Position numbers and translations under genes: made by a program. This document shows, piece by piece, positions 7,174 to 18,489 of a DNA stretch of 64,000 bases (the first letter of the stretch is position 1; every line of letters starts with the position of its first letter). Source of the stretch: an uncultured delta proteobacterium (GTDB taxonomy: Bacteria; Desulfobacterota; Syntrophobacteria; Syntrophobacterales; Syntrophobacteraceae); NCBI GenBank assembly GCA_963828705.1, contig CAWHGA010000032.1, positions 7,058-71,057 on the forward strand, in the 5' to 3' direction. Under the pieces are notes generated by a model. It had not been told where the DNA came from. It did not search any database and was given only the letters and a program-made list of their open reading frames with translations.

Positions 7174-7249
7174 GGCGAGGTAGCTCAGTCGGTAGAGCAG
7201 TGGACTGAAAATCCTCGTGTCCGGTGTTCGATTCACCGCCTCGCCACCA
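7174..7249 (+). tRNA. tRNA-Phe (anticodon GAA), CCA encoded
   Basis: Hand-folded cloverleaf: acceptor GGCGAGG/CCTCGCC, D arm GCTC-AGTCGGTA-GAGC, anticodon loop CTGAAAA, T arm CGGTG-TTCGATT-CACCG, discriminator A plus CCA. There is one T-T mismatch in the anticodon stem. Confidence 0.93.
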
Positions 7250-8485: not shown

Positions 8486-8785
8486 GAGACCCGCCCGGCA
8501 TGTTCTTGTCATGCGCCGTGCGCGTCTCAAGCATTGGAATCGGTGATCGGTTACAATCGGTGCAGGGGGCTTCGGTTCAAGCCGCTCGCTTTCCGGGTAC
8601 TTCAAACGGCGGCTGCGCGCCGAGAAGGGTTCCTCATGCTTTCTAGAACCATGGAGACTATGGCAAGAACACGATGCTATCACATCCCGGCGTCATTGAT
8701 TGTCCATAACGCCTTGAGAATACTGGGTTTCAGTCGGCGCTGCAATGCCACAAACGCTGGTGCGACGGGTTCTGCCGCCGCCCGC

Positions 8786-9979
8786 ATGGTTCTGATCGGT
8801 TGGTGGTTGCTGCTCATGACAGCCGGTTGTGCCACACTGCCGCAGGAGACTGATCAGCACTTGCAGTTGCAGGGTTCTGACCATGATTTGCAGATCGGCG
8901 AGATCGTCAATACGAGTTCCGGAGCGGTGATCACTTTTCCCGATCTGCTCAACGAACTTGCGCTGCAACAGGTGGTCTATGTCGGTGAAACTCACAGCAG
9001 CGCAGCCGACCATGAGGTTCAGCGACGCATCTTGGAAGGGCTATACGGACGCAACCGTGACCTGGTGGTGGCCATGGAAATGTTCCCCCGGTCGGTTCAG
9101 CCCTGGCTGGACCGCTGGTCTCGGGGGGAGCTTGGGGAGGTGGAATTCCTCCAGGGGGTCGACTGGGAGCACAACTGGGGCTTTCCGGTGGGGCTCTACC
9201 GGCCTTTATTGGATTATTGCGCTACCAACCACATTCCCATCCTGGGGCTGAACGCTCCCTCGCCCATTGTCAGGGCCATCGCCCAGCGCGGTCTTGGTGG
9301 ACTGGAATCGGAACAACGGGCTCAGGTGGCCGAGGTATTTGACTTCAGCGATGAAAAGCACCGCACCGCCATCCGCGCACAATATGACCGGCATATGGCC
9401 ATGCATGGCGGGGTGGGGAGTTTCGAACGTTTCTATGAAGCCCAGTTGGCCTGGGAAGAAACCATGGCTGAAACTGTGGCTGACCAGTTCATCAGTTGCA
9501 GCCGCCGGAAGCCGCCGCAGATTGTAGTGTTTGCCGGCAATGGCCACGTGGAATACCGATACGGAATCCCGGCCAGGGCCTTTCGTCGTTTTCCGCACGC
9601 CTTCAAGACCGTCGTTCCAGTCCCCTGGAACAGCGCCGAGCGCACCCTGGATCCGGCCTTGGCTGATTATTTCTGGATTACCGATCCCTCGGAAATGTCG
9701 CATGGCCATCGCGGGCGTCTTGGGGTTCGCGTCGAATCATTGGCGGCGGGCAAGGGTGTCCGGATCGCGGCGGTAATGCCCGGTGGACCGGCCGCACAGG
9801 CGGGAATCAAGCCTGGTGACATCTTGGTCAGGATCGATGATACACCGATTTCAGGCCTGGAAGATGTTCACCAAGCGTTGGCATTTCAGCAACCGCGCAT
9901 AAGGGCCAGCCATCGAGTCTTACTCCAACGCGACGGCACCGACGTGCAACTTTCCATAGTGATTCCTAAGGAGCCCTGA
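8786..9979 (+). CDS. ChaN-family (haem-binding/Tiki-like) lipoprotein with C-terminal PDZ domain
   Basis: Internal ATG at 8786 gives MVLIGWWLLLMTAGC, a lipobox-like signal. The ChaN-like region contains VVYVGETHSSAADHEVQRRILEGL. The C-terminus is PDZ-like (GVRIAAVMPGGPAAQAGIKPGDILVRIDD). The upstream 84 codons of the ORF-track entry look non-coding. Confidence 0.7.
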   Translation: MVLIGWWLLLMTAGCATLPQETDQHLQLQGSDHDLQIGEIVNTSSGAVITFPDLLNELALQQVVYVGETHSSAADHEVQRRILEGLYGRNRDLVVAMEMFPRSVQPWLDRWSRGELGEVEFLQGVDWEHNWGFPVGLYRPLLDYCATNHIPILGLNAPSPIVRAIAQRGLGGLESEQRAQVAEVFDFSDEKHRTAIRAQYDRHMAMHGGVGSFERFYEAQLAWEETMAETVADQFISCSRRKPPQIVVFAGNGHVEYRYGIPARAFRRFPHAFKTVVPVPWNSAERTLDPALADYFWITDPSEMSHGHRGRLGVRVESLAAGKGVRIAAVMPGGPAAQAGIKPGDILVRIDDTPISGLEDVHQALAFQQPRIRASHRVLLQRDGTDVQLSIVIPKEP

Positions 9980-10011
9980 CCGCTTCTCCATCTAGCTTTC
10001 TGGAAAAGCCC

Positions 10012-10041
10012 TTGACAGGATATCCTCGGTTTTCTATGGTG
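10012..10041 (+). promoter_or_regulatory. Sigma70-like promoter of the aromatic amino-acid operon leader
   Basis: TTGACA (10012-10017), 18-nt spacer, TATGGT (10036-10041). An SD (AAGGGGAG, 10053-10060) and the leader ATG at 10066 follow. Confidence 0.5.
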
Positions 10042-10065
10042 TTTGGCACGAAAGGGGAGTCACCA

Positions 10066-10134
10066 TGTACGTTGCAACCGGCTTTTATTTTTATTGCGGT
10101 TTTTTGTATGCCACCGGGTGGCCCGCCCTTTGAG
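10066..10134 (+). CDS. 22-codon aromatic-rich leader peptide MYVATGFYFYCGFLYATGWPAL (putative attenuation leader)
   Basis: Hand translation gives 8 of 22 codons as Phe, Tyr or Trp. A good SD sits 6 nt upstream. The ORF lies between the promoter and an intrinsic terminator, immediately upstream of the aro/pheA genes. It is too short for the ORF track. Confidence 0.6.
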
Positions 10135-10160
10135 TCAGCTATGTGACTGAATGCGACCAA

Positions 10161-10190
10161 AAGCCGCGGGTTCAACCCCGCGGCTTTTTT
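10161..10190 (+). terminator. Intrinsic terminator (putative attenuator) between the leader peptide and aroB'
   Basis: Stem GCCGCGGG (10163-10170), loop ttcaac, stem CCCGCGGC, followed by T6 (10185-10190). It sits 27 nt after the leader stop codon. Confidence 0.75.
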
Positions 10191-10237
10191 CATTCCGGAG
10201 CCAGGGATTGTATTTGGTTGGTAAGAAGTTGGAATCG

Positions 10238-11248
10238 ATGTGCCGAGGTGAAGCGGTGAAAGAGGTATGGGTCAGGTTGGACCAGTGGTCGAAGGAGATC
10301 GTGACGGCGGCCTTGGAAGCGGGCGCCGACGCGCTGGTGATCCCGCCCGGCTGGCAGGAACGCATCAAAGAGCTGGGGCGAATCGTCACGGTGAGCGAAG
10401 ACGGCGACCTGAAACCCGGCCAGGACATCTTCTTCGAGAAACTGGCCGACCCGGAAGACGAAGCGCGCATCGCCAGGCTGCTCCGTACCGTGCCCGTGGT
10501 CATTGACCAGCCCCGCTGGGAAGTGATCCCCCTGGAAAACCTGGTGGCCGGCGGTGGCCGGCTGCTGGTGACGGTGGATGCCCTCGAAGGGTTGGAACTG
10601 GCAATGGGCATTCTGGAAAAGGGCGTGGCGGGAGTGGTTATTCGCGCTGTCGATGTCCCCGGGGTGAAAGCCATGGTGGCTCGAGTCAAAGCCGGTGTCG
10701 AAAGGGTTGAGCTGCACCTGGCCACGGTGGAAAAAGTGTTGCCGGTGGGGATGGGGGATCGGGTATGTGTTGATACCTGCACCTCGATGAAAGATGGTGA
10801 AGGGATGCTGGTGGGCAATTTCAGCCATTTCCTCTTTCTGGTCCAGGCGGAAACGCGCTGCAGTCCCTATGTGGCGCCGCGTCCGTTCCGCGTCAATGCC
10901 GGGGCGCTGCATGCCTATGTGCGCACACCGGATGGCCGAACCCGCTACCTGAGTGAACTGGAAAGCGGCCATGCGGTGCTCGTGACCGATGCCTCCGGCA
11001 ACACCCAACCGGCGGTGGTGGGCCGCGCCAAGATCGAACGACGCCCGTTGTTGTTGGTGAGCGCCGTCTGTGAAGGGGTCACCGGCTCCCTGGTGGTGCA
11101 GAATGCGGAAACCATCAGGCTGGCCGGCCCGGGCGGCGAACCCCGTTCGGTGGCCGCACTGCAGCCAGGAGATGAAGTGCTGGTAATGCTCGATGAAAGC
11201 GGACGCCACTTCGGTATCAAGGTCCAAGAAACCATTTGGGAGCGATAA
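10238..11248 (+). CDS. 3-dehydroquinate synthase II (archaeal-type DHQS, AroB')
   Basis: Motifs KEVWVRLDQWSKEIVTAALEAGADALV, GDRVCVDTCTSMKDGEGMLVG, PYVAPRPFRVNAGALHAYV, TRYLSELESGH and KIERRPLLLV match my memory of the DHQS-II family. The start must lie after the terminator (ATG 10238 or GTG 10256). Confidence 0.85.
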   Translation: MCRGEAVKEVWVRLDQWSKEIVTAALEAGADALVIPPGWQERIKELGRIVTVSEDGDLKPGQDIFFEKLADPEDEARIARLLRTVPVVIDQPRWEVIPLENLVAGGGRLLVTVDALEGLELAMGILEKGVAGVVIRAVDVPGVKAMVARVKAGVERVELHLATVEKVLPVGMGDRVCVDTCTSMKDGEGMLVGNFSHFLFLVQAETRCSPYVAPRPFRVNAGALHAYVRTPDGRTRYLSELESGHAVLVTDASGNTQPAVVGRAKIERRPLLLVSAVCEGVTGSLVVQNAETIRLAGPGGEPRSVAALQPGDEVLVMLDESGRHFGIKVQETIWER

Positions 11249-11250
11249 CG

Positions 11251-12411
11251 GTGAACGACAATTTGCAGAAACAGCTTACCGGCTTGCGCGACGCCATCGA
11301 TCGCATCGATCAACAGCTGCTTCGCCTGCTGAACGAACGCATGGAACAGGCCAAGGAAATCGGCCGGATCAAAGCGGACGCCGGTTCGCCGTCCTTCGAT
11401 CCGAGCCGCGAAGAAGCCATTTATGCGCGGTTGTCCAGGGGCAATCCGGGACCGCTGAGCGATGATGGGCTGCGTTCCATCTACCGCGAAATCCTGGCCG
11501 CTTCCCGAGTGCTGCAGCATCCCCTGGAAGTGGCGTTTCTGGGACCGGAATGGACCTATTCCCATCTTGCCGCCCGTTCCCTGTTCGGCCATTCCGCCAG
11601 CTATGTGCCGTTACCCACTCTCGAGGATGTCTTTGACCAGCTGGTCAAGGGGCTGGTGCATGTGGCCATCGCCCCCATCGAGAATTCCCTGGAAGGCGGC
11701 GTGACCCGCACCATGGACCTGCTTTACGAATGCGAAGCCCAGGTGGTCCGGGAGTGTTACCTGGAGGTCGCCCATTACCTGGCCGGCAAGGCCGCTTCGC
11801 TGGAGGAGGTGGAGCGCGTCTACGCTCATCCGCAGACCCTGGGGCAATGTCGTCACTGGTTGCTTCATAACCTGCGCCAGGCGGTCCTGCGCGAATGCAG
11901 TTCCACCGCTGAAGCGGCCCGGCTGTCACAGGAAGACCCCACCGGTGCAGCCATCTGCAATCTGTTTGCGGCCCATCACTACGGGCTAAATATCCTGGCT
12001 GCCCGGATCGAAGATCAACCTGGCAATATCACCAGGTTTTTTGCTTTGGCCCAGCATTTCAACCCGCCCACCGGCCATGACAAGACTTCGATCCTGTTTG
12101 CCGTGCCGGATCGACCGGGTGCCCTCCAATATGCCCTGGAACCCTTCACCCAGCATGGGCGCAATATGACGCGGATCGAATCCCGGCCCAGCCGAATCTC
12201 CGCCTGGCACTACCTGTTTTATGCCGACATCGAAGGCCATCGCGACGATCCGGCCATCCGCCAGAGTCTCGAGGATCTGGAGAAACGTGTTACCTTCCTG
12301 AAGGTGTTGGGTTCTTATCCACGCAGCGATCCATTTCGGCCCATCCGTTTCCAGATGGAACAGGTGGCGCCGGTGATGCGGTTGGCTACGGCCGAACCGG
12401 CCAAGGTGTGA
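11251..12411 (+). CDS. pheA: Bifunctional chorismate mutase / prephenate dehydratase (P-protein) with ACT domain
   Basis: N-terminal CM_2 helix region (LRDAIDRIDQQLLRLLNERMEQAKEIGRIK). The PDT core contains VAFLGPEWTYSHLAA and AIAPIENSLEGGV. The ACT-like region has TSILFAVPDRPGALQYAL and TRIESRP. GTG start at 11251, preceded by GGGAG. Confidence 0.9.
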   Translation: MNDNLQKQLTGLRDAIDRIDQQLLRLLNERMEQAKEIGRIKADAGSPSFDPSREEAIYARLSRGNPGPLSDDGLRSIYREILAASRVLQHPLEVAFLGPEWTYSHLAARSLFGHSASYVPLPTLEDVFDQLVKGLVHVAIAPIENSLEGGVTRTMDLLYECEAQVVRECYLEVAHYLAGKAASLEEVERVYAHPQTLGQCRHWLLHNLRQAVLRECSSTAEAARLSQEDPTGAAICNLFAAHHYGLNILAARIEDQPGNITRFFALAQHFNPPTGHDKTSILFAVPDRPGALQYALEPFTQHGRNMTRIESRPSRISAWHYLFYADIEGHRDDPAIRQSLEDLEKRVTFLKVLGSYPRSDPFRPIRFQMEQVAPVMRLATAEPAKV

Positions 12412-12417
12412 GATCCG

Positions 12418-13111
12418 ATGAGTAACGCCGGAAAATTCTGCGGATGCCTGATGAATGCGGAACCGCAGCACCTGCTGACATTCCTGCAGGATCCCGAAGT
12501 GGACCTGCTGGAATGGCGTCTGGACGCTTTTATCGCCCATCAGGGCTGGTCCAGGACCCGAGAGATGTTGGCCCTGCTCGGTTCGGATCGGCGCCGACCG
12601 ATACTGGTCACCAACCGGCCCGAGCGCCAAGGGGGCATGTTTGTCGGTTCCGAGACCGAACGATTGGCCGTCCTGGCGGAAGCCGTGGCGGCCGGTGCCG
12701 ACTGGGTGGACCTGGAAGATGACGTGGACACGCCTGTTCGTCGGCAGGTTCCACCAACTGGGTGCCAGAGTGCTGGTCTCTCACCATGATTTCTCTCAGA
12801 CGCCGGGACTCGGAGAACTGCAAGCCATCGCCCGAGAATTGGTGGTCGATGCCGACTGCATCAAGATCGTCACTTTCGCCAATAACCCCGAGGATTGCCT
12901 GCGGGTGTTGCAGTTGATCCCGTGGGGGCGGGAAACGCTTGGGGCGGATGTCATCGCCTTTTGCATGGGGGCCGCTGGCCGCTGGAGCCGGGTGGTGAGC
13001 TTGCTGCTCGGCAGTCCCTGGACTTATGTGAGCCTGCAGGCCGGACTGGAAGCGGCACCAGGGCAATACTCCGTCACCGAAATCCGGACTCTTCTGGAGA
13101 TGCTCGCATGA
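12418..13111 (+). CDS. aroD: 3-dehydroquinate dehydratase type I; frame broken once (+1) near 12727-12737
   Basis: ORF 12418..12789 (...AGADWVDLEDDVD...) and ORF 12641..13111 (...LFVGRFHQLGARVLVSHHDFSQTP...IKIVTFA...) together form one AroD-like protein. The stop overlaps the aroE start (ATGA). Confidence 0.8.
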
Positions 13112-13929
13112 TGCGTGTGGTGCAAAGCGATTTGTTTGCCGTCATCGGCCACCCGGTGGCCCATTCCCTGAGCCCGGTTATGATGAATGCCGCTTTTGCC
13201 GTTCTGGATCTGCCCGCTCATTATCTGGCGTTGGAGGTCGATGAACTGGCGTCGGCCCTGCGGCTGCTGGCCGATATCGGTGTGCGCGGCCTAAGCGTCA
13301 CCATCCCTCACAAGGAAATCGCCTGTCAGCAAGCGCTGAAACTGGATGACACGGCCCGGGCCATCGGTGCCGTTAACACCCTGCGGTGCGTGAATGATCC
13401 CGTCGGCTGGGAAGGGATCAATACCGATTGGCTGGGGGCGGTGCGAGCCCTTCAGCAGGTGACATCCCTTCCCGGCAAACGAGCCCTGGTGATCGGCGCC
13501 GGTGGTTCGGCGCGCGCCGTGGTCTACGGCCTCAAGCGCGAAGGAGCGGCGGTGAGCGTCACCAATCGCACGCCGGAACGCGGCGAATCACTGGCCGCCG
13601 CTTTCCAAGCCGAGTTCGTGTCCCTGGCTGAAGTCCCTCGGCAGCGTTTCGATATCCTCGTGCAATGCACCTCGGTGGGTCTGACCGGGGGAGCGATTTC
13701 CGAGGTGTTACCGCCATCGGTCTTCCATCCCGAAATGGTGGTCATGGATCTGGTCTATCGACCGCTGTGGACCCCCTTTCTGCTGGCGGCCCGGGGCGCC
13801 GGTTGCGTCACCGTTTCCGGCCTCGATATGCTGCTGTTACAGGGTGCGGCGCAGTTCGAATGGTGGTTGCAACGGCCGGCGCCCATAGCATCAATGAAAG
13901 ATGCCCTGTTGCAAAAGTTGGGGCAGTGA
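13108..13929 (+). CDS. aroE: Shikimate 5-dehydrogenase
   Basis: Motifs FAVIGHPVAHSLSPVMMNAAF, LSVTIPHK, GAVNTL, NTDWLG and VIGAGGSARAVVYGL. Confidence 0.9.
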   Translation: MMRVVQSDLFAVIGHPVAHSLSPVMMNAAFAVLDLPAHYLALEVDELASALRLLADIGVRGLSVTIPHKEIACQQALKLDDTARAIGAVNTLRCVNDPVGWEGINTDWLGAVRALQQVTSLPGKRALVIGAGGSARAVVYGLKREGAAVSVTNRTPERGESLAAAFQAEFVSLAEVPRQRFDILVQCTSVGLTGGAISEVLPPSVFHPEMVVMDLVYRPLWTPFLLAARGAGCVTVSGLDMLLLQGAAQFEWWLQRPAPIASMKDALLQKLGQ

Positions 13930-13965
13930 GAGTGTGAGGCCGTGTATCGCGCCACATACAGCTAG

Positions 13966-13985
13966 GGGCAATTCATGAATTGCCC
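13966..13985. repeat. Perfect 20-bp palindrome GGGCAATTCATGAATTGCCC (REP-like unit)
   Basis: Read directly from the sequence, 37 nt after the aroE stop. No T-run follows. Confidence 0.7.
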
Positions 13986-14120
13986 TTACATCTGGCTTCA
14001 CGGCGACTTCCTAATTGGCTGCAGTGGCAAACCTCACGGTTGACGCCAAAACAGTTATAAGGTGAGTTTCTACATCCGCTGGTTGGCAATAGGAACTGTC
14101 CAAACATAACCATTGCGGAC

Positions 14121-14331
14121 GTTGCGTTTCATTGCATTCAATGCAACCTACTATTCTGTCAGCTTTGTTTTGCAGGCTCGGTGACTAGGCCTGGATTCCC
14201 GCGCAGGCGGGAATCCAGGTGTTTATAAGGTTCACTGGACCCGCGCCTGCGCGGGGGTGACATTCTATACCCGTCGAAACTATTTTGGTGGAGCACTACG
14301 GTAGGTCGTGTTGAATGCAATGAAACGCGAC
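14121..14331. mobile_element. MITE-like element (about 211 bp) with roughly 31-bp terminal inverted repeats, inserted between aroE and aroA
   Basis: Left TIR is GTTGCGTTTCATTGCATTCAATGCAACCTAC (14121-14151). Right TIR (14301-14331) has reverse complement GTCGCGTTTCATTGCATTCAACACGACCTAC. The core carries two REP-like hairpins. There is no coding capacity. Confidence 0.6.
14190..14255. repeat. REP-like hairpins inside the MITE core
   Basis: CCTGGATTCCCGC-GCAG-GCGGGAATCCAGG (14190-14219) and CCCGCGC-CT-GCGCGGG (14240-14255). The same motifs recur at 15.9-16.06 kb and 42.5 kb. Confidence 0.7.
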
Positions 14332-14411
14332 ACAAAAATCACGGCGAAATGGCATACTTATTGTTGGGCGGCTCCTTAGATCCTGAGGTTCTGAAGAGTG
14401 AGTAGACAAGG

Positions 14412-15684
14412 ATGATCCAAACCATAACACCCGTTGACGGTCTACGGGCGCGAGTGCGCCTGCCGGGCTCCAAGTCGGTCACCCACCGAGCGCTCCTGAT
14501 GGCGGCTTTGGCCGAGGGTGAAAGCCTGGTGCGCAATCCGCTTCGCGCCGAAGATACGTTGCTAACCGGCCACGCCCTGGTACAGCTTGGAGTACAGCTC
14601 GATCTGGGAAGACAACGCCGTGCGCGTGCGTCCCCCGAGGGTGCGCTGGAGCCAGCCGCCGGGGCCGATCCATCTGGGCAACAGCGGCACCAGCACGCGA
14701 TTGTTGGCGGGTCTCCTGGCGGCCGGTTGCGGGCGCTTCGTGGTGGACGGCACGGCGCGGTTGCGCGAACGCCCCATCGGCCCGGTGCTGCAGGCCCTGG
14801 CCGGACAGGGGGTAAGCTGCCGCTATCTGGGTGAAGCCGGCTATCCGCCTGTGGAAATCGAGGCCCGAGGGCTTCAGGGCGGCGATATCGAAATCGATGC
14901 CCGCCAGAGTTCGCAGTTTCTTTCCGCTGTTTTGCTGGTGGCGCCGTGTGCGCCGCGAGACATGGTGGTGAGCTGGCTGGAACCTCTGGCCTCGGCTCCC
15001 TATGTGCACCTGACACTCGCCATGTTGGGACAATGGGGGATTGAGTACCAGTGGTTGGGTCCCAACCGGGTCCTCATCCCGGCCCCCCAGATCTATCGAG
15101 CCCAAGAATACCTGGTGGAAGGGGATTGCTCGTCAGCATCCTACTGGTGGGCGGCGGCTGCGGTGACCGGGGGCGACATCCACACATCACCGGTTGGGAT
15201 CGACGCGCTTCAGGGCGATTGCCGCTTCCTGGGAATCCTCGAACGCATGGGTTGTACCGTGCGTTGGGAGGAAGAAGGCGTCCGCGTGCTGGGACCAGAA
15301 AGGCTCCAGGCTCTTGACCTGGATATGAACGCCATGCCTGACACGGTGCCGACTCTGGCCGTGGTGGCGGCCTTCGCCGACGGTGCTACCCGAATCCGCA
15401 ACGTGGGTCATCTGCGCATCAAGGAATCGGACCGGATCGCCGTGGTTGCGGAGGAACTGACCAAACTTGGGATTGCCGTCGAAGAACTGCCGGATGGCCT
15501 GGTGATTCAGGGCGGCGGCGCGCATGGTGCGGCCGTTGAAGCCCACGATGACCACCGCATTGCCATGGCATTTGCCGTTGCTGGACTGCGTGTTCCTGGA
15601 ATCACCATCCATGGGGCCGAAGCAGTGGCCAAATCCTACCCCACCTTCTGGGATGAATTCACCAGACTCGGAGAAGCATCCTGA
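14412..15684 (+). CDS. aroA: 3-phosphoshikimate 1-carboxyvinyltransferase (EPSP synthase); frame broken once (+1) near 14598-14606
   Basis: ORF 14412..14834 starts LPGSKSVTHRALLMAALAEGES...LLTGHALVQLGVQL. ORF 14587..15684 continues ...WEDNAVRVRPP...LGNSGTSTRLLAGLLA...RERPIG...KESDR...DHRIAMAFAV. Confidence 0.85.
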
Positions 15685-16973: not shown

Positions 16974-18489
16974 ATGAACAAGGAAGAACCATTGCGGCGA
17001 AAGCTCTCACGCCCTTACGCCTCATGGATTTTCACCCAAACAGGCTGGTGGCTGCTGCCGGTGCTGCTTCTGGCGCCTTTGTTTCTGGCTGATGCCGCGC
17101 CAGTCGATCAACCGGGCGGCGATTGGGCCAAGCGCCTTCAGCCGCTGCAACACGCCGCTCGTCAGGTGGCGATTCAGGTGGTCTCCCTTCCGGACCGGCG
17201 CCTGGTTTATGCGCATCAGGCCAACCGGCGCCTGATGCCGGCTTCTGTGGTCAAGATTCTCGTCAGTTATGCGGCATTGAAGGAATTGGGCTCGTATCAT
17301 CATTTCACCACCGAGGTCTGGAGCCGGCAGGTGGTGCGCGATGGTGTCCTGGCTGGCGATATCTGGATAAAGGGCAGCGGCGATCCCTTTCTGGTGCCGG
17401 AGAAGCTCTATCTGCTTGGGCAAAAGATCAGAGAGGCCGGAATTCATCGCATCGATGGCGGGATCGGGGTCGACAACGGCTATCTCCGCGCCTCTGTGGA
17501 AAAGATCTGCCTGGATGGCCAGTGCGATCGTGCCTACAATCCGGTGATCACAGCGACCACCCTCGATTTTAATACACTCACCTTGCAGCTTCGCCCCTCA
17601 AGCCGTCCTGGCGTGCCCGTGACGGTGGAGGTCTTTCCGCACGGCGACTACGCCGTGGTGGACAACCAAGTCGGAAGGGGCGATGCCCAGGCGGGTGAAA
17701 GCGGGATTCAGGTGCATTCGGCCGGAGTGACCGCAGATGGCCGTGAACGTTACCGACTCACCGGGAGTCTTGCCGCCAAGTCTGGCTGAAGCCATCGAAG
17801 TGCGGGTGAATGTGAACGACCCGGTGAGCTTCTTCGCGCGCTCCCTCAAGTGCCTGCTGGGCGAGATCGGGGTCGAAGTGCGAGGTGGAATCCTGCCTGC
17901 CGGCTCGGTGCCGAGTGGCGCGCGCAAATTGACCGAATACACCTCCCCACCTCTGAAAGACATCCTGTACGGCCTCAATCGTTACAGCAACAATTTCATG
18001 GCGGAGCTGCTGCTGCGGGTGCTGGGTGCGGAAATCAAGGGATTGCCCGGCAGTGCCGAAAAAGGCCTGGAAGTGTTGGGCGAGACGCTCGCTGCCCTCG
18101 GCGTGCCCGGTACAGAACTGGAACTGGACGGTGGCTCGGGGTTGAGTCGCCGCTGCCGGGTGAGCGCTCAGGCTCTGTGTTCGGTGTTGGTGGCCGCTTA
18201 CCATGATCCGGAAATTGGGCCGGAGTTCATGGCCTCTCTGGCTACGGGCGGGGAAGAGGGGACCCTGCGGCGCCGTGGCAAACGCTTGACCAATCCGGCC
18301 TCGATTCGAGGCAAAACCGGCTCGCTCAGTGACGTGATAGGATTCGCCGGTTATGTTAGCGCTCCCGGCGGCGGGACCCATGCCGTTGTCATCCTGCTCA
18401 ACGAGGTTCATAAGCCGGCCGAAGCCAAAGCGGCCATTGACCGTTTCCTGTCATGGTTGGCTGGGATTCGCAGTTCTGGAGAGCAGTGA
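16974..18489 (+). CDS. dacB: D-alanyl-D-alanine carboxypeptidase/endopeptidase PBP4 (peptidase S13); frame broken once (+1) near 17780-17788
   Basis: ORF 16974..17789 carries a signal sequence and the SxxK motif (PASVVKI). ORF 17737..18489 carries YSNNFMAE (SxN) and RGKTGSL (KTG). The two join at ...RYRLTGSLAAKS / AEAIEVRVNVNDP. Confidence 0.8.

Follow-up and report, generated by a model that had tools for sequence, protein, structure and literature searches.

Among described systems, the closest parallels to the leader reported here are those of Escherichia coli pheL and Corynebacterium glutamicum aroR. In pheL-pheA (Rfam Phe_leader, gamma-proteobacteria), an ORF with codons for the end product is followed by an intrinsic terminator directly upstream of the CM-PDT (pheA) unit, and its regulatory codons are for Phe only. 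The aroR leader peptide, which precedes the DAHP synthase gene aroF and acts through ribosome stalling, contains Phe-Tyr-Phe and is described as responding to Phe with no response to Tyr (Neshat et al. 2014, as cited in PMC11802643). A third point of comparison is provided by trpL of E. coli and of Sinorhizobium (rnTrpL, peTrpL), which has Trp regulatory codons and alternative 1:2, 2:3 and 3:4 helices, and whose terminated leader is a stable, structured small RNA.

The leader described here lies upstream of the operon aroB'-pheA-aroD-aroE-aroA in a 64,000-nucleotide stretch of DNA (the window) from an uncultured deltaproteobacterium. On the strength of its layout, of its conservation in relatives and of ribosome modeling, we consider it likely that this leader is a ribosome-mediated transcription attenuator of the operon that senses the supply of charged tRNA-Phe and tRNA-Tyr. 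By analogy, it would work most like pheL and aroR, but none of the Rfam leader families matches it in sequence or structure: Phe_leader, Trp_leader, His_leader, Leu_leader and Thr_leader gave no match at E ≤ 10 between 9000 and 11000, nor did the T-box, and over the whole window Rfam returned nothing except a tRNA at the gathering threshold. Homology to aroR is unlikely given the phylogenetic distance, and the comparison with aroR is one of functional description only, as given in the source cited above.

Table 1. Features of the leader region and operon, in coordinates of the window
Feature	Position	Strand	Details
ChaN-PDZ gene	8534-9979	+	Upstream neighbor, co-directional
Promoter	10012-10040	+	-35 TTGACA 10012-10017, 17-nt spacer, -10 TATGGT 10035-10040
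Region 1 (5' strand of helix P1)	10051-10064	+	AAAGGGGAGUCACC; holds the leader SD and abuts the AUG
Leader SD	10054-10059	+	GGGGAG, 5 nt ahead of the ATG
Leader ORF	10065-10133	+	22 codons + UGA; peptide MYVATGFYFYCGFLYATGWPAL
Regulatory block, proposed ribosome stalling sites	10083-10109	+	Codons 7-15, F Y F Y C G F L Y
Region 2 (switch strand)	10117-10131	+	GGUGGCCCGCCCUUU; its last base is the U that opens the UGA stop
Spacer hairpin P2 or P2'	10133-10157	+	P2 AGUCA/UGACU, 10133-10148; P2' GUCAGC...GCGAC, 10134-10157; from MFE folds and RNAalifold
Intrinsic terminator	10159-10190	+	5' arm AAAAGCCGCGGG 10159-10170, loop UUCAAC 10171-10176, 3' arm CCCGCGGCUUUU 10177-10188, T6 10185-10190
aroB' (3-dehydroquinate synthase II, DHQS II)	10256-11248	+	First gene of the operon; Pfam PF01959, E = 4.7e-115
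Rest of operon	11236-15684	+	pheA, aroD, aroE, 480-nt insert, aroA
pheA (CM-PDT-ACT)	11236-12411	+	
aroD (DHquinase_I)	12418-13111	+	Frameshifted near 12729-12746 in this assembly
aroE (shikimate DH)	13108-13929	+	
aroA (EPSP synthase)	14412-15684	+	Frameshifted near 14600 in this assembly; separated from aroE by the 480-nt insert

The downstream genes were identified as encoding DHQS II, CM-PDT-ACT, DHquinase_I, shikimate DH and EPSP synthase, in agreement with the gene order given in a preliminary description of this DNA, and the order is the same in relatives. The operon has pheA without tyrA. Its first gene, aroB', begins with a GTG 66 nt past the T-tract, and this start aligns with the ATG of a relative (L001). 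The promoter-like TTGACA/TATGGT pair noted in the preliminary description is present with a 10/12 match and is the sole sigma-70-like site in 9500-10800, where shuffled sequences average 0.3; across 10 lineages its -35 element is nearly invariant and its -10 element is conserved. From the terminator to aroB', the same scan found no further promoter-like site.

Following the promoter, the SD and the 22-codon ORF reported earlier are all present (10054-10133), including the 3 Phe, 4 Tyr and 1 Trp codons. Phe and Tyr make up 7 of 21 leader codons, compared with 5.6% in the genes of the window (binomial P = 1e-4). Ranked by aromatic fraction among the 2270 small ORFs in the window, the leader ORF is second, and the only one above it is the tail of a real gene. 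Outside the regulatory block, the Tyr at codon 2 (10068-10070) is also kept in most close relatives. The genome has no preference for C-ending Phe and Tyr codons, so that the U-ending Phe and Tyr codons of the leader are uninformative.

The terminator hairpin itself is unambiguous. The GC-rich hairpin and T6 tract that had been noted previously form a 12-bp stem with 8 G-C core pairs and a folding energy of -22 kcal/mol; its core pattern has a single occurrence in the whole 64 kb, with none in shuffled sequences. The stem is 100% paired in the close clade, and the terminator is conserved in every lineage. A simple terminator scanner reported no sites despite this hairpin, which we attribute to its maximal stem taking up four of the six T's.

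Two further helices are predicted upstream of the terminator. In MFE folds, region 1 pairs with region 2 to form helix P1 (-15.1 kcal/mol), which the RNAalifold consensus recovers independently. Across nine distinct close-clade sequences, 92% of the P1 cells are paired and six pairs survive one-sided changes, and in the MFE folds of three other leaders (L012, L014 and L016) the translation-start region pairs with the region of the stop codon in a comparable way. P1 is an upstream helix that, in these models, would sequester the switch strand in the untranslated leader, though its first strand is the ribosome-binding site (RBS) rather than the regulatory codons. The spacer hairpin P2 or P2' sits within the antiterminator loop and is compatible with both states; P2' shows one compensatory change, from C-G to U-A, in L006. 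Together, P1, P2 and the terminator give the terminated RNA a predicted folding energy of -42 kcal/mol.

The preliminary description had proposed to look in relatives for a mini-ORF rich in aromatic codons, and this comparison provides the decisive evidence. We found 14 distinct leaders ahead of orthologous aroB' operons, all consisting of a promoter, an SD, a short Phe/Tyr-rich ORF and then a terminator, a layout that is kept while the peptide diverges. They represent the close clade and five divergent Syntrophobacteraceae-type lineages (about six lineages in all), and include a MAG labeled Syntrophobacter fumaroxidans and Desulforhabdus sp. TSK, whose leaders lie at L012:2778-2831 and L014:2786-2854, respectively; some of the relatives' ORFs use a TTG start, also with an SD. 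The nine distinct close-clade leaders (AroB' 76-80% identical) have a 22-codon ORF with 7-9 Phe/Tyr codons, and their aromatic block varies by interchange of Phe and Tyr and by synonymous changes. Between lineages, the peptides cannot be aligned apart from their 5-9 Phe and Tyr codons. The five divergent lineages, in which the upstream neighbor is a divergent rtcB, have the peptides MSVCGFFFYYCFTNRKR, MAGPVVFDIYFYYYFPGRGKRC, MSSMNYYRYCFCFGGGEMTL, MTNKSYFRYYYFSRYGVGETLQTCL and MPGRLFFYCYCFSICRRSRGPA, each followed by a terminator. Not counting the start codon, Phe and Tyr account for 24-43% of leader codons, where the genes of the window have 5.6% (P between 1e-4 and 5e-3 for every one of six lineages). 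A scan of the genome collection with the AroB' protein as query gave only two loci, of which one belongs to an unrelated Spirochaete that has aroA' immediately upstream. A metagenome scan for the pattern of region 2 plus terminator gave only four, one of them (L021) a chance match.

The leader unit always lies directly upstream of aroB' and in the same orientation, while the upstream neighbor varies (ChaN-PDZ, rtcB or MurJ). The islands conserved across 10 lineages are limited to the promoter, the SD, a TA inside the aromatic block, region 2 and the terminator. A variant that is identical in three independent assemblies (L007-9) carries a 1-nt deletion that changes the C-terminal frame and shifts the stop by 12 nt. 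The aromatic block alone keeps its frame, and the nucleotide motif is unchanged; selection therefore acts on the Phe and Tyr codons and on the RNA rather than on the peptide. There are exceptions: one lineage (L010/L011) keeps the promoter, region 2 and terminator and has lost the aromatic codons and the stop codon, L024 is without a leader and L025 is ambiguous.

Region 2 has two predicted alternatives, pairing either with region 1 in P1 or with the 5' arm of the terminator through CCCGC (10122-10126) and UUU (10129-10131). A segment at 10122-10131 had been said to pair partly with this arm; the pairing holds, with 5 + 3 bp flanking a 2x2 mismatch, and its position is off by one, the strand being GCCCGCCCTTT at 10121-10131. 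A 20-nt block at region 2 is identical in nine close sequences except for one C/U difference, and all 10 lineages compared share the motif G(G/A)CC(C/U)GC at the stop codon without variation; this motif can pair either with the 5' arm of the terminator or with the RBS of the leader itself. The geometry is likewise consistent, with region 2 lying -19 to +4 nt from the stop codon, 12-28 nt past the last core Phe/Tyr codon and 34-41 nt before the arm, and in most leaders region 2 is the best or near-best partner of the arm. Between lineages, the pyrimidine of the motif and the purine of the arm combine as C:G, U.G or U:A, which amounts to one or two events only; within the close clade the antiterminator pairs never vary and there is no covariation.

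We modeled the leaders with a ribosome masking part of the RNA. With the ribosome stalled on Phe or Tyr codons, the model has region 2 available for the arm in 12 of 12 leaders, and with the ribosome at the stop codon the arm would be left free (0 to -6.6 kcal/mol). Applied to E. coli pheL, the model reproduced the validated behavior, which resembles that predicted here: the antiterminator with a stalled ribosome, the terminator with the ribosome at the stop, and the upstream helix plus terminator with no ribosome. The helices are computed at -15.1 kcal/mol for P1, about -10 to -12 for the antiterminator (-17.6 as a fragment MFE) and -22 for the terminator. In trp leaders the energies are of a similar order, the 2:3 helix being markedly weaker than the 3:4 helix. 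Against shuffled controls, the stability of the antiterminator is not better than chance (z = -1.6 to +0.75), and we dropped the thermodynamic argument as evidence after this control. The 8-bp antiterminator of pheL does clear this control (z = -2.5 to -4.7), and the helix proposed here, with z about -1 against -3 to -4.7, is much the weaker of the two. The antiterminator segment of the preliminary description, CCCGCCCUUU, is one of three conserved islands in the transcribed leader, with a stability not above that of the shuffles. A second candidate strand, GCGGUUUUUU at codons 11-14 (10096-10105), can form pairs with the stretch AAAAGCCGC in the arm, and this pairing is as stable as that of region 2 in the window, L020 and L012; as an antiterminator it was rejected, not being general across lineages.

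Taken with the models, the layout suggests how the leader would operate. Transcription would start near 10047 from the strong sigma-70-type promoter, and a ribosome would load at the leader SD. When Phe and Tyr are plentiful, the ribosome would reach the UGA (10131-10133) and cover region 2 while the polymerase makes the terminator; with region 2 covered, the hairpin at 10159-10188 would form and transcription would end in the T-tract with a leader RNA of some 140 nt. When Phe or Tyr is scarce, we infer that the ribosome would stall on codons 7-15 with its 3' edge just upstream of CCCGC, leaving region 2 to win the arm (GCGGG + AAG) as an antiterminator and allowing the polymerase to enter aroB'. 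If the ORF is free of ribosomes, region 2 would pair with the SD and start region in P1, which would serve as an anti-antiterminator and close the RBS, making termination the default. One point against the scheme is that region 1 coincides with the RBS and not with the regulatory codons. A ribosome stalled early in the block would cover neither strand of P1, and P1 would then have to be excluded sterically.

This scheme agrees with the earlier proposal of a Phe/Tyr-sensing attenuator for an aro operon, which the retention of the layout and of Phe and Tyr codons in relatives supports strongly and the conserved switch segment also supports, and departs from it as follows. The preliminary description had the leader working exactly as in pheL and trpL; the anti-antiterminator strand is instead the leader's SD and start region, not the regulatory codons. 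The proposed sensing of Trp we reject: the single UGG lies in the switch strand, within the conserved RNA motif; no distant lineage has it, and the frameshifted variant L007 has lost it. It would also make an implausible sensor, as a ribosome paused there would cover the antiterminator strand. The leader differs in this respect from trpL, and it differs from pheL in mixing Phe and Tyr codons, in a switch strand that overlaps or precedes the stop codon rather than following it, and in heading an operon that begins with an archaeal-type DHQS II and includes common-pathway genes. As far as aroR is described in PMC11802643, the two share a mixed Phe/Tyr leader peptide, a shikimate-pathway operon and ribosome stalling; aroR belongs to a different phylum, has three aromatic codons rather than 5-9 and controls aroF rather than aroB'-pheA-aroDEA.

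Attenuation might proceed as proposed with Phe alone as the effective signal, the Tyr codons being passengers of a U/A-rich stretch. The operon has pheA and no tyrA, the block is U-rich and UUU differs from UAU by one mutation, and in the same account of aroR only Phe limitation changed expression despite the Phe-Tyr-Phe sequence. We nevertheless regard this as unlikely, since every Phe/Tyr-rich lineage has at least two Tyr codons and at least one Phe codon, Tyr exceeds Phe in 10 of 14 leaders (L003, for instance, has 6 Y and 2 F, and L022 has 5 Y and 2 F), UAU and UAC are confined to the SD-linked frame, and the common-pathway genes of the operon are required for Tyr. If the signal were read not by a ribosome but by a riboswitch, a T-box-like tRNA sensor or a protein of the TRAP/PyrR kind, G(G/A)CC(C/U)GC would be a binding site and the ORF incidental. 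Such a switch would suit antiterminator energetics that are not above chance and a conservation of region 2 beyond what pairing energy alone would seem to need, but Rfam gives no match at E ≤ 10 to T-boxes, riboswitches or known leaders, the leaders share no conserved structured aptamer, only Phe/Tyr codon content being conserved from the SD to region 2, and the in-frame Phe/Tyr enrichment with SD and start codon in six lineages would go unexplained; we hold it to be highly improbable. Least credible of all is that the hairpin merely terminates the ChaN-PDZ gene and the mini-ORF arose by chance in a T-rich spacer. That gene is on the same strand in the close clade and no other terminator lies between 9979 and the hairpin; a near-consensus promoter, however, separates the two, the Phe/Tyr enrichment recurs independently, and the five lineages with a divergent rtcB upstream, which still have the promoter-ORF-terminator unit, contradict it.

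The leader could instead be an independent small gene, for a 22-aa aromatic/hydrophobic micropeptide or an sRNA of about 140 nt, with the aro operon having its own promoter. It forms a full transcription unit of its own, promoter and terminator both being strong, its terminated RNA would be highly structured (P1 + P2 + T, -42 kcal/mol) with weak, sub-threshold Rfam matches to Hfq-type sRNAs that are driven by the terminator, and attenuator-derived sRNAs and trans-acting leader peptides are described in Sinorhizobium (as presented in PMC7298713 and PMC7968998). This seems very unlikely, however, for a peptide that is not conserved between lineages and whose C terminus is frameshifted in L007, in a unit that always adjoins aroB' in the same orientation though its upstream neighbor differs, with no promoter-like site between terminator and aroB' and with an enrichment in exactly the amino acids that the pathway produces. 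Returning to the attenuator, we can also envisage a distinct architectural variant in which, with its own RBS as the anti-antiterminator strand, the decision integrates translation initiation through a ribosome trapped in the P1 loop instead of direct occlusion of strand 1, and in which the abundant, tightly folded RNA of ~140 nt, possibly with the aromatic peptide, acts in trans as an sRNA. If true, such a combination would link other genes of syntrophic Desulfobacterota to Phe/Tyr status; we consider it unlikely, action in trans being known for rnTrpL and peTrpL and only conceivable here.

In the searchable literature we found no published leader-peptide attenuator in Syntrophobacter or the Deltaproteobacteria, including the papers of Naville, Korolev and Seliverstov; a prior prediction in subscription literature is possible. 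Rodionov 2004, on delta-proteobacteria, describes no aro/trp attenuator. The mechanism is a textbook one and alters no concept. Judged from sequence, the leader would extend classical leader-peptide attenuation to Syntrophobacteraceae-type Desulfobacterota and to an operon headed by an archaeal-type 3-dehydroquinate synthase II. As a clear example of a leader in which Phe codons and Tyr codons are both retained from lineage to lineage, it makes dual-amino-acid sensing testable, the sole characterized mixed leader, aroR, responding to Phe alone in the account available. In practical terms, the element marks the true start of the operon and offers a compact natural candidate for a Phe/Tyr-responsive part. 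In public gene calls, AroB' is often over-extended by 30-45 residues, across the terminator.

All of the elements listed in the preliminary description of the aroB' leader (promoter, SD, ORF, hairpin with its T-run and downstream genes) are found in the window, and we regard them as a real attenuator of conventional mechanism, well supported by comparison with relatives, with stalling and switching steps that we infer from the sequence. Between 9500 and 10800, the promoter is the sole sigma-70-like site (shuffle mean 0.3), and the core pattern of the terminator has a single match in the 64 kb and none in shuffled sequence. A consensus terminator scanner reported no terminators here, this hairpin included, a miss that we attribute to a limitation of the tool, whose maximal-stem rule absorbs four of the six T's; the terminator is present. 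Phe and Tyr make up 7 of the 21 leader codons as against 5.6% in the window's genes (P = 1e-4), and the ORF ranks second by aromatic content among 2270 small ORFs in the window, the first being the tail of a real gene.

To collect orthologous aroB' upstream regions, we used protein look-ups and one DNA-pattern scan. In the close clade, with AroB' identities of 76-80% and, as in the window, a ChaN-PDZ gene upstream, we observe nine distinct leaders including the window's own, every ORF being 22 codons long. The arrangement of promoter, SD, short ORF and terminator recurs in five lineages further away (AroB' identity 58-62%), which have a divergent rtcB upstream. The peptide sequences there are unrelated and once more rich in Phe and Tyr, a richness improbable in each leader singly (1e-4 to 5e-3); codons for both residues are kept in all five, and none of the five has a Trp codon. 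Conservation of the aromatic mini-ORF in relatives, which had been proposed as a check on the attenuator, thus holds across the nine close-clade leaders and the five distant lineages.

Leader features in the window and leader peptides of related aroB' operons
Feature	Position	Details
Promoter TTGACA-17-TATGGT	10012-10040	10/12 positions match consensus
SD GGGGAG	10054-10059	5 nt upstream of ATG at 10065
Leader ORF	10065-10133	MYVATGFYFYCGFLYATGWPAL
Terminator hairpin AAAAGCCGCGGG/UUCAAC/CCCGCGGCUUUU	10159-10188	T-run 10185-10190; -22 kcal/mol
DHQS II (aroB')	10256-11248	first gene after leader
Close-clade peptide		MYAATNFYYYYGFVYGAGWPAL
Close-clade peptide		MYAATGLYFYYGFLYATGWPAL
Close-clade peptide		MYAATKYYFYYGFLYGTGWPAF
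Close-clade peptide		MSAATAFYFYYGFLYGTGWPAF
Close-clade peptide		MYAATNFYYYYGSLYGAGWPAL
Close-clade peptides, TTG start		MYAAAYFHFYYGFFYGARWPAL, MYPAAYFYFYCGFSHGTRWPAL
Close-clade frameshift variant	L007:2747-2941	same sequence in L008, L009
Peptide, L012 (S. fumaroxidans-labelled MAG)		MSVCGFFFYYCFTNRKR
Peptide, L014 (Desulforhabdus sp. TSK)		MAGPVVFDIYFYYYFPGRGKRC
Peptide, L016		MSSMNYYRYCFCFGGGEMTL
Peptide, L022		MTNKSYFRYYYFSRYGVGETLQTCL
Peptide, L023		MPGRLFFYCYCFSICRRSRGPA

The frameshift variant carries a 1-nt deletion in the T-run following the Gly-Phe codons. The deletion leaves the aromatic block, SAYTYFYYGF, in frame, alters the reading frame of the C-terminus and shifts the stop 12 nt downstream into the spacer hairpin; the underlying nucleotides GGTGGCCCGCCCTTTGAGTC are unchanged. 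Because it was found in three independent assemblies, it is a real variant, and it separates two constraints, one that holds the F/Y codons in frame and one that acts at the RNA level on the ORF's 3' end.

Conservation over ten lineages is confined to five islands: promoter, SD, a TA in the aromatic block, terminator and region 2, the ORF-terminal motif G(G/A)CC(C/U)GC. In every leader, region 2 lies between -19 and +4 nt relative to the stop codon, follows the last core F/Y codon by 12-28 nt and precedes the terminator 5' arm, GCCGC(A/G)GG, by 34-41 nt; it is complementary to this arm as CCYGC:GCRGG. The Y and R positions covary as C:G, U.G or U:A, and C/A is never seen. An unbiased scan of the whole leader for the arm's best partner placed region 2 top in 10 of 15 leaders, and second or third in four of the remaining five. 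The antiterminator proposed from this pairing, at -10 to -12 kcal/mol in the window (-17.6 as the fragment MFE in the ribosome-masking run), overlaps the terminator at 10161-10170. Region 2 is also part of a 13-bp helix, P1 (10051-10064 with 10117-10131; -15.1 kcal/mol), whose 5' strand is the leader's own SD/start region. P1 is present in the MFE of most close-clade leaders and is recovered by RNAalifold; it is 92% paired, with six pairs kept via one-sided G-C/G-U changes plus one double change, and L012, L014 and L016 have similar start-region/stop-region helices in their MFE folds. Since P1 and the antiterminator both use C10122 and 10126-10131, they are mutually exclusive. Separately, GCGGUUUUUU (10096-10105, codons 11-14) resembles the terminator 3' arm and could form 9 bp with AAAAGCCGC of the 5' arm, possibly serving as a second antiterminator when the ribosome stalls on the earliest F/Y codons; the close-clade leaders (7-9 bp; L007 has UGGCUUUU) and L012 share this potential pairing, which the other lineages lack.

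To model ribosome position, we masked -15 to +15 nt around the P-site and folded the nascent transcript as far as the terminator loop. A ribosome placed on the F/Y block lets region 2 pair with the arm in 12 of 12 leaders tested (-13 to -20 kcal/mol, inner hairpin included), and one placed at the stop codon masks region 2 and leaves the arm essentially free (0 to -6.6 kcal/mol). The identical script gives textbook behaviour for E. coli pheL (NC_000913), our positive control. Dinucleotide-shuffled upstream segments pair with the arm about equally well (z = -1.6 to +0.75); the E. coli pheL antiterminator clearly beats its own shuffles (z = -2.5 to -4.7). The antiterminator is therefore backed by conservation, position and covariation rather than by energetics, and is the weakest link of the model.

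When charged tRNA-Phe and tRNA-Tyr are ample, the ribosome would reach the UGA and mask region 2, and the terminator would form. On Phe/Tyr shortage, a stall in codons 7-15 would let region 2 pair with the arm, and the polymerase would read through. At codons 13-15, the 3' edge of the stalled ribosome would fall at ~10113-10119, covering no more than the initial bases of the 3' strand of P1, with CCCGC left free. On a ribosome-free ORF, P1 is predicted to beat the antiterminator, making termination the default. A stall early in the block would leave both P1 strands uncovered, with P1 putatively excluded by a second ribosome on the RBS or by a steric block, in that a 13-bp helix should be unable to close round a ribosome filling 30 of the 52 loop nt. 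The preliminary description had also allowed for Trp sensing, which we reject, as a ribosome paused at the lone Trp codon, which is not conserved and lies inside region 2, would favour termination.

A stand-alone micropeptide or sRNA gene at this position is contradicted by the lack of peptide conservation, by a linkage to aroB' that is constant while upstream neighbours change and by the sigma-70-like scan of 9500-10800, which places no promoter downstream. Sensing by the RNA, as a riboswitch, as a T-box or via a protein, is likewise contradicted, with zero Rfam matches and an F/Y signal that is in frame, and the idea that the hairpin merely terminates the upstream gene does not hold in lineages that have rtcB as the neighbour. 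Within ribosome-mediated attenuation, Phe alone may be sensed and Tyr not, by analogy with aroR of C. glutamicum, the closest functional match, whose mixed Phe-Tyr-Phe leader is reported to respond to Phe and not Tyr (PMC11802643).

The window's leader belongs to none of the Rfam leader families and functionally matches the pheL/trpL class, to which it appears, from sequence, to be a well supported addition. It differs in that its own RBS serves as strand 1, in that it places the switch strand at or upstream of the stop codon and in that its operon is headed by an archaeal-type DHQS II. We found no description of such an attenuator in Deltaproteobacteria or Syntrophobacter in the searchable, openly readable literature.

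L010 (2715-2910) and L011 carry a natural 'mutant' leader that still has its promoter, GGCUGGCCCGCC motif and terminator and has lost the aromatic codons and the stop, so that the ORF extends to 54 codons and across the terminator. The pheA gene of this lineage is cut down to a 100-aa chorismate mutase; L023 has a CM-only gene too, yet keeps its F/Y leader, so pheA reduction and loss of aromatic codons are not strictly linked. L024 has a short spacer upstream of aroB', in which no leader was found. The most distant leader, that of L025 (2190-2420), is ambiguous between a GTG frame with just three aromatic residues (..AFYHYH..) and an ATG frame (MHQGAPCPKLIGHFTIITAVVSGIG) with UAA directly before CCCGC and pairing between its start and stop regions; regulatory codons in this lineage may differ.

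Downstream of DHQS II lie genes for CM-PDT-ACT (pheA), DHquinase_I, shikimate dehydrogenase and EPSP synthase, and the closest AroB' homologues are labelled Syntrophobacteraceae, Syntrophobacter fumaroxidans, Desulforhabdus or 'uncultured delta proteobacterium'. Two-frame splits affect aroD (12729-12746), aroA (about 14600) and a Peptidase_S13 gene (17737-17789), with comparable splits in relatives L001 (AroB') and L016 (RtcB). The window is probably long-read MAG sequence, and its splits look like assembly indel errors rather than pseudogenisation, so homopolymer lengths need caution; the leader's reading frame nonetheless holds up in several independent JGI and Logan assemblies. The longest AroB' ORF (10151-11248, 365 aa) starts after the leader stop, ahead of the terminator, and spans the hairpin. 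Many public homologues, P0015, P0048 and P0050 among them, are called at 361-383 aa versus about 330 aa, and the N-terminal extension of P0050 (L022) covers the leader terminator; these long calls look like over-extensions across the attenuator. The sole tRNA within the 64 kb, tRNA-Phe(GAA) at 7174-7249 (+), precedes mutY 2.8 kb 5' of the leader on the same strand, a proximity that is probably coincidence. Between aroE and aroA, which overlap in relative L003, lies a ~480-nt spacer (13930-14411) with 31-nt inverted-repeat arms (14121-14151 and 14301-14331, 87% complementary) and additional hairpins (14190-14255), which may be a MITE-like insertion within the attenuated operon.
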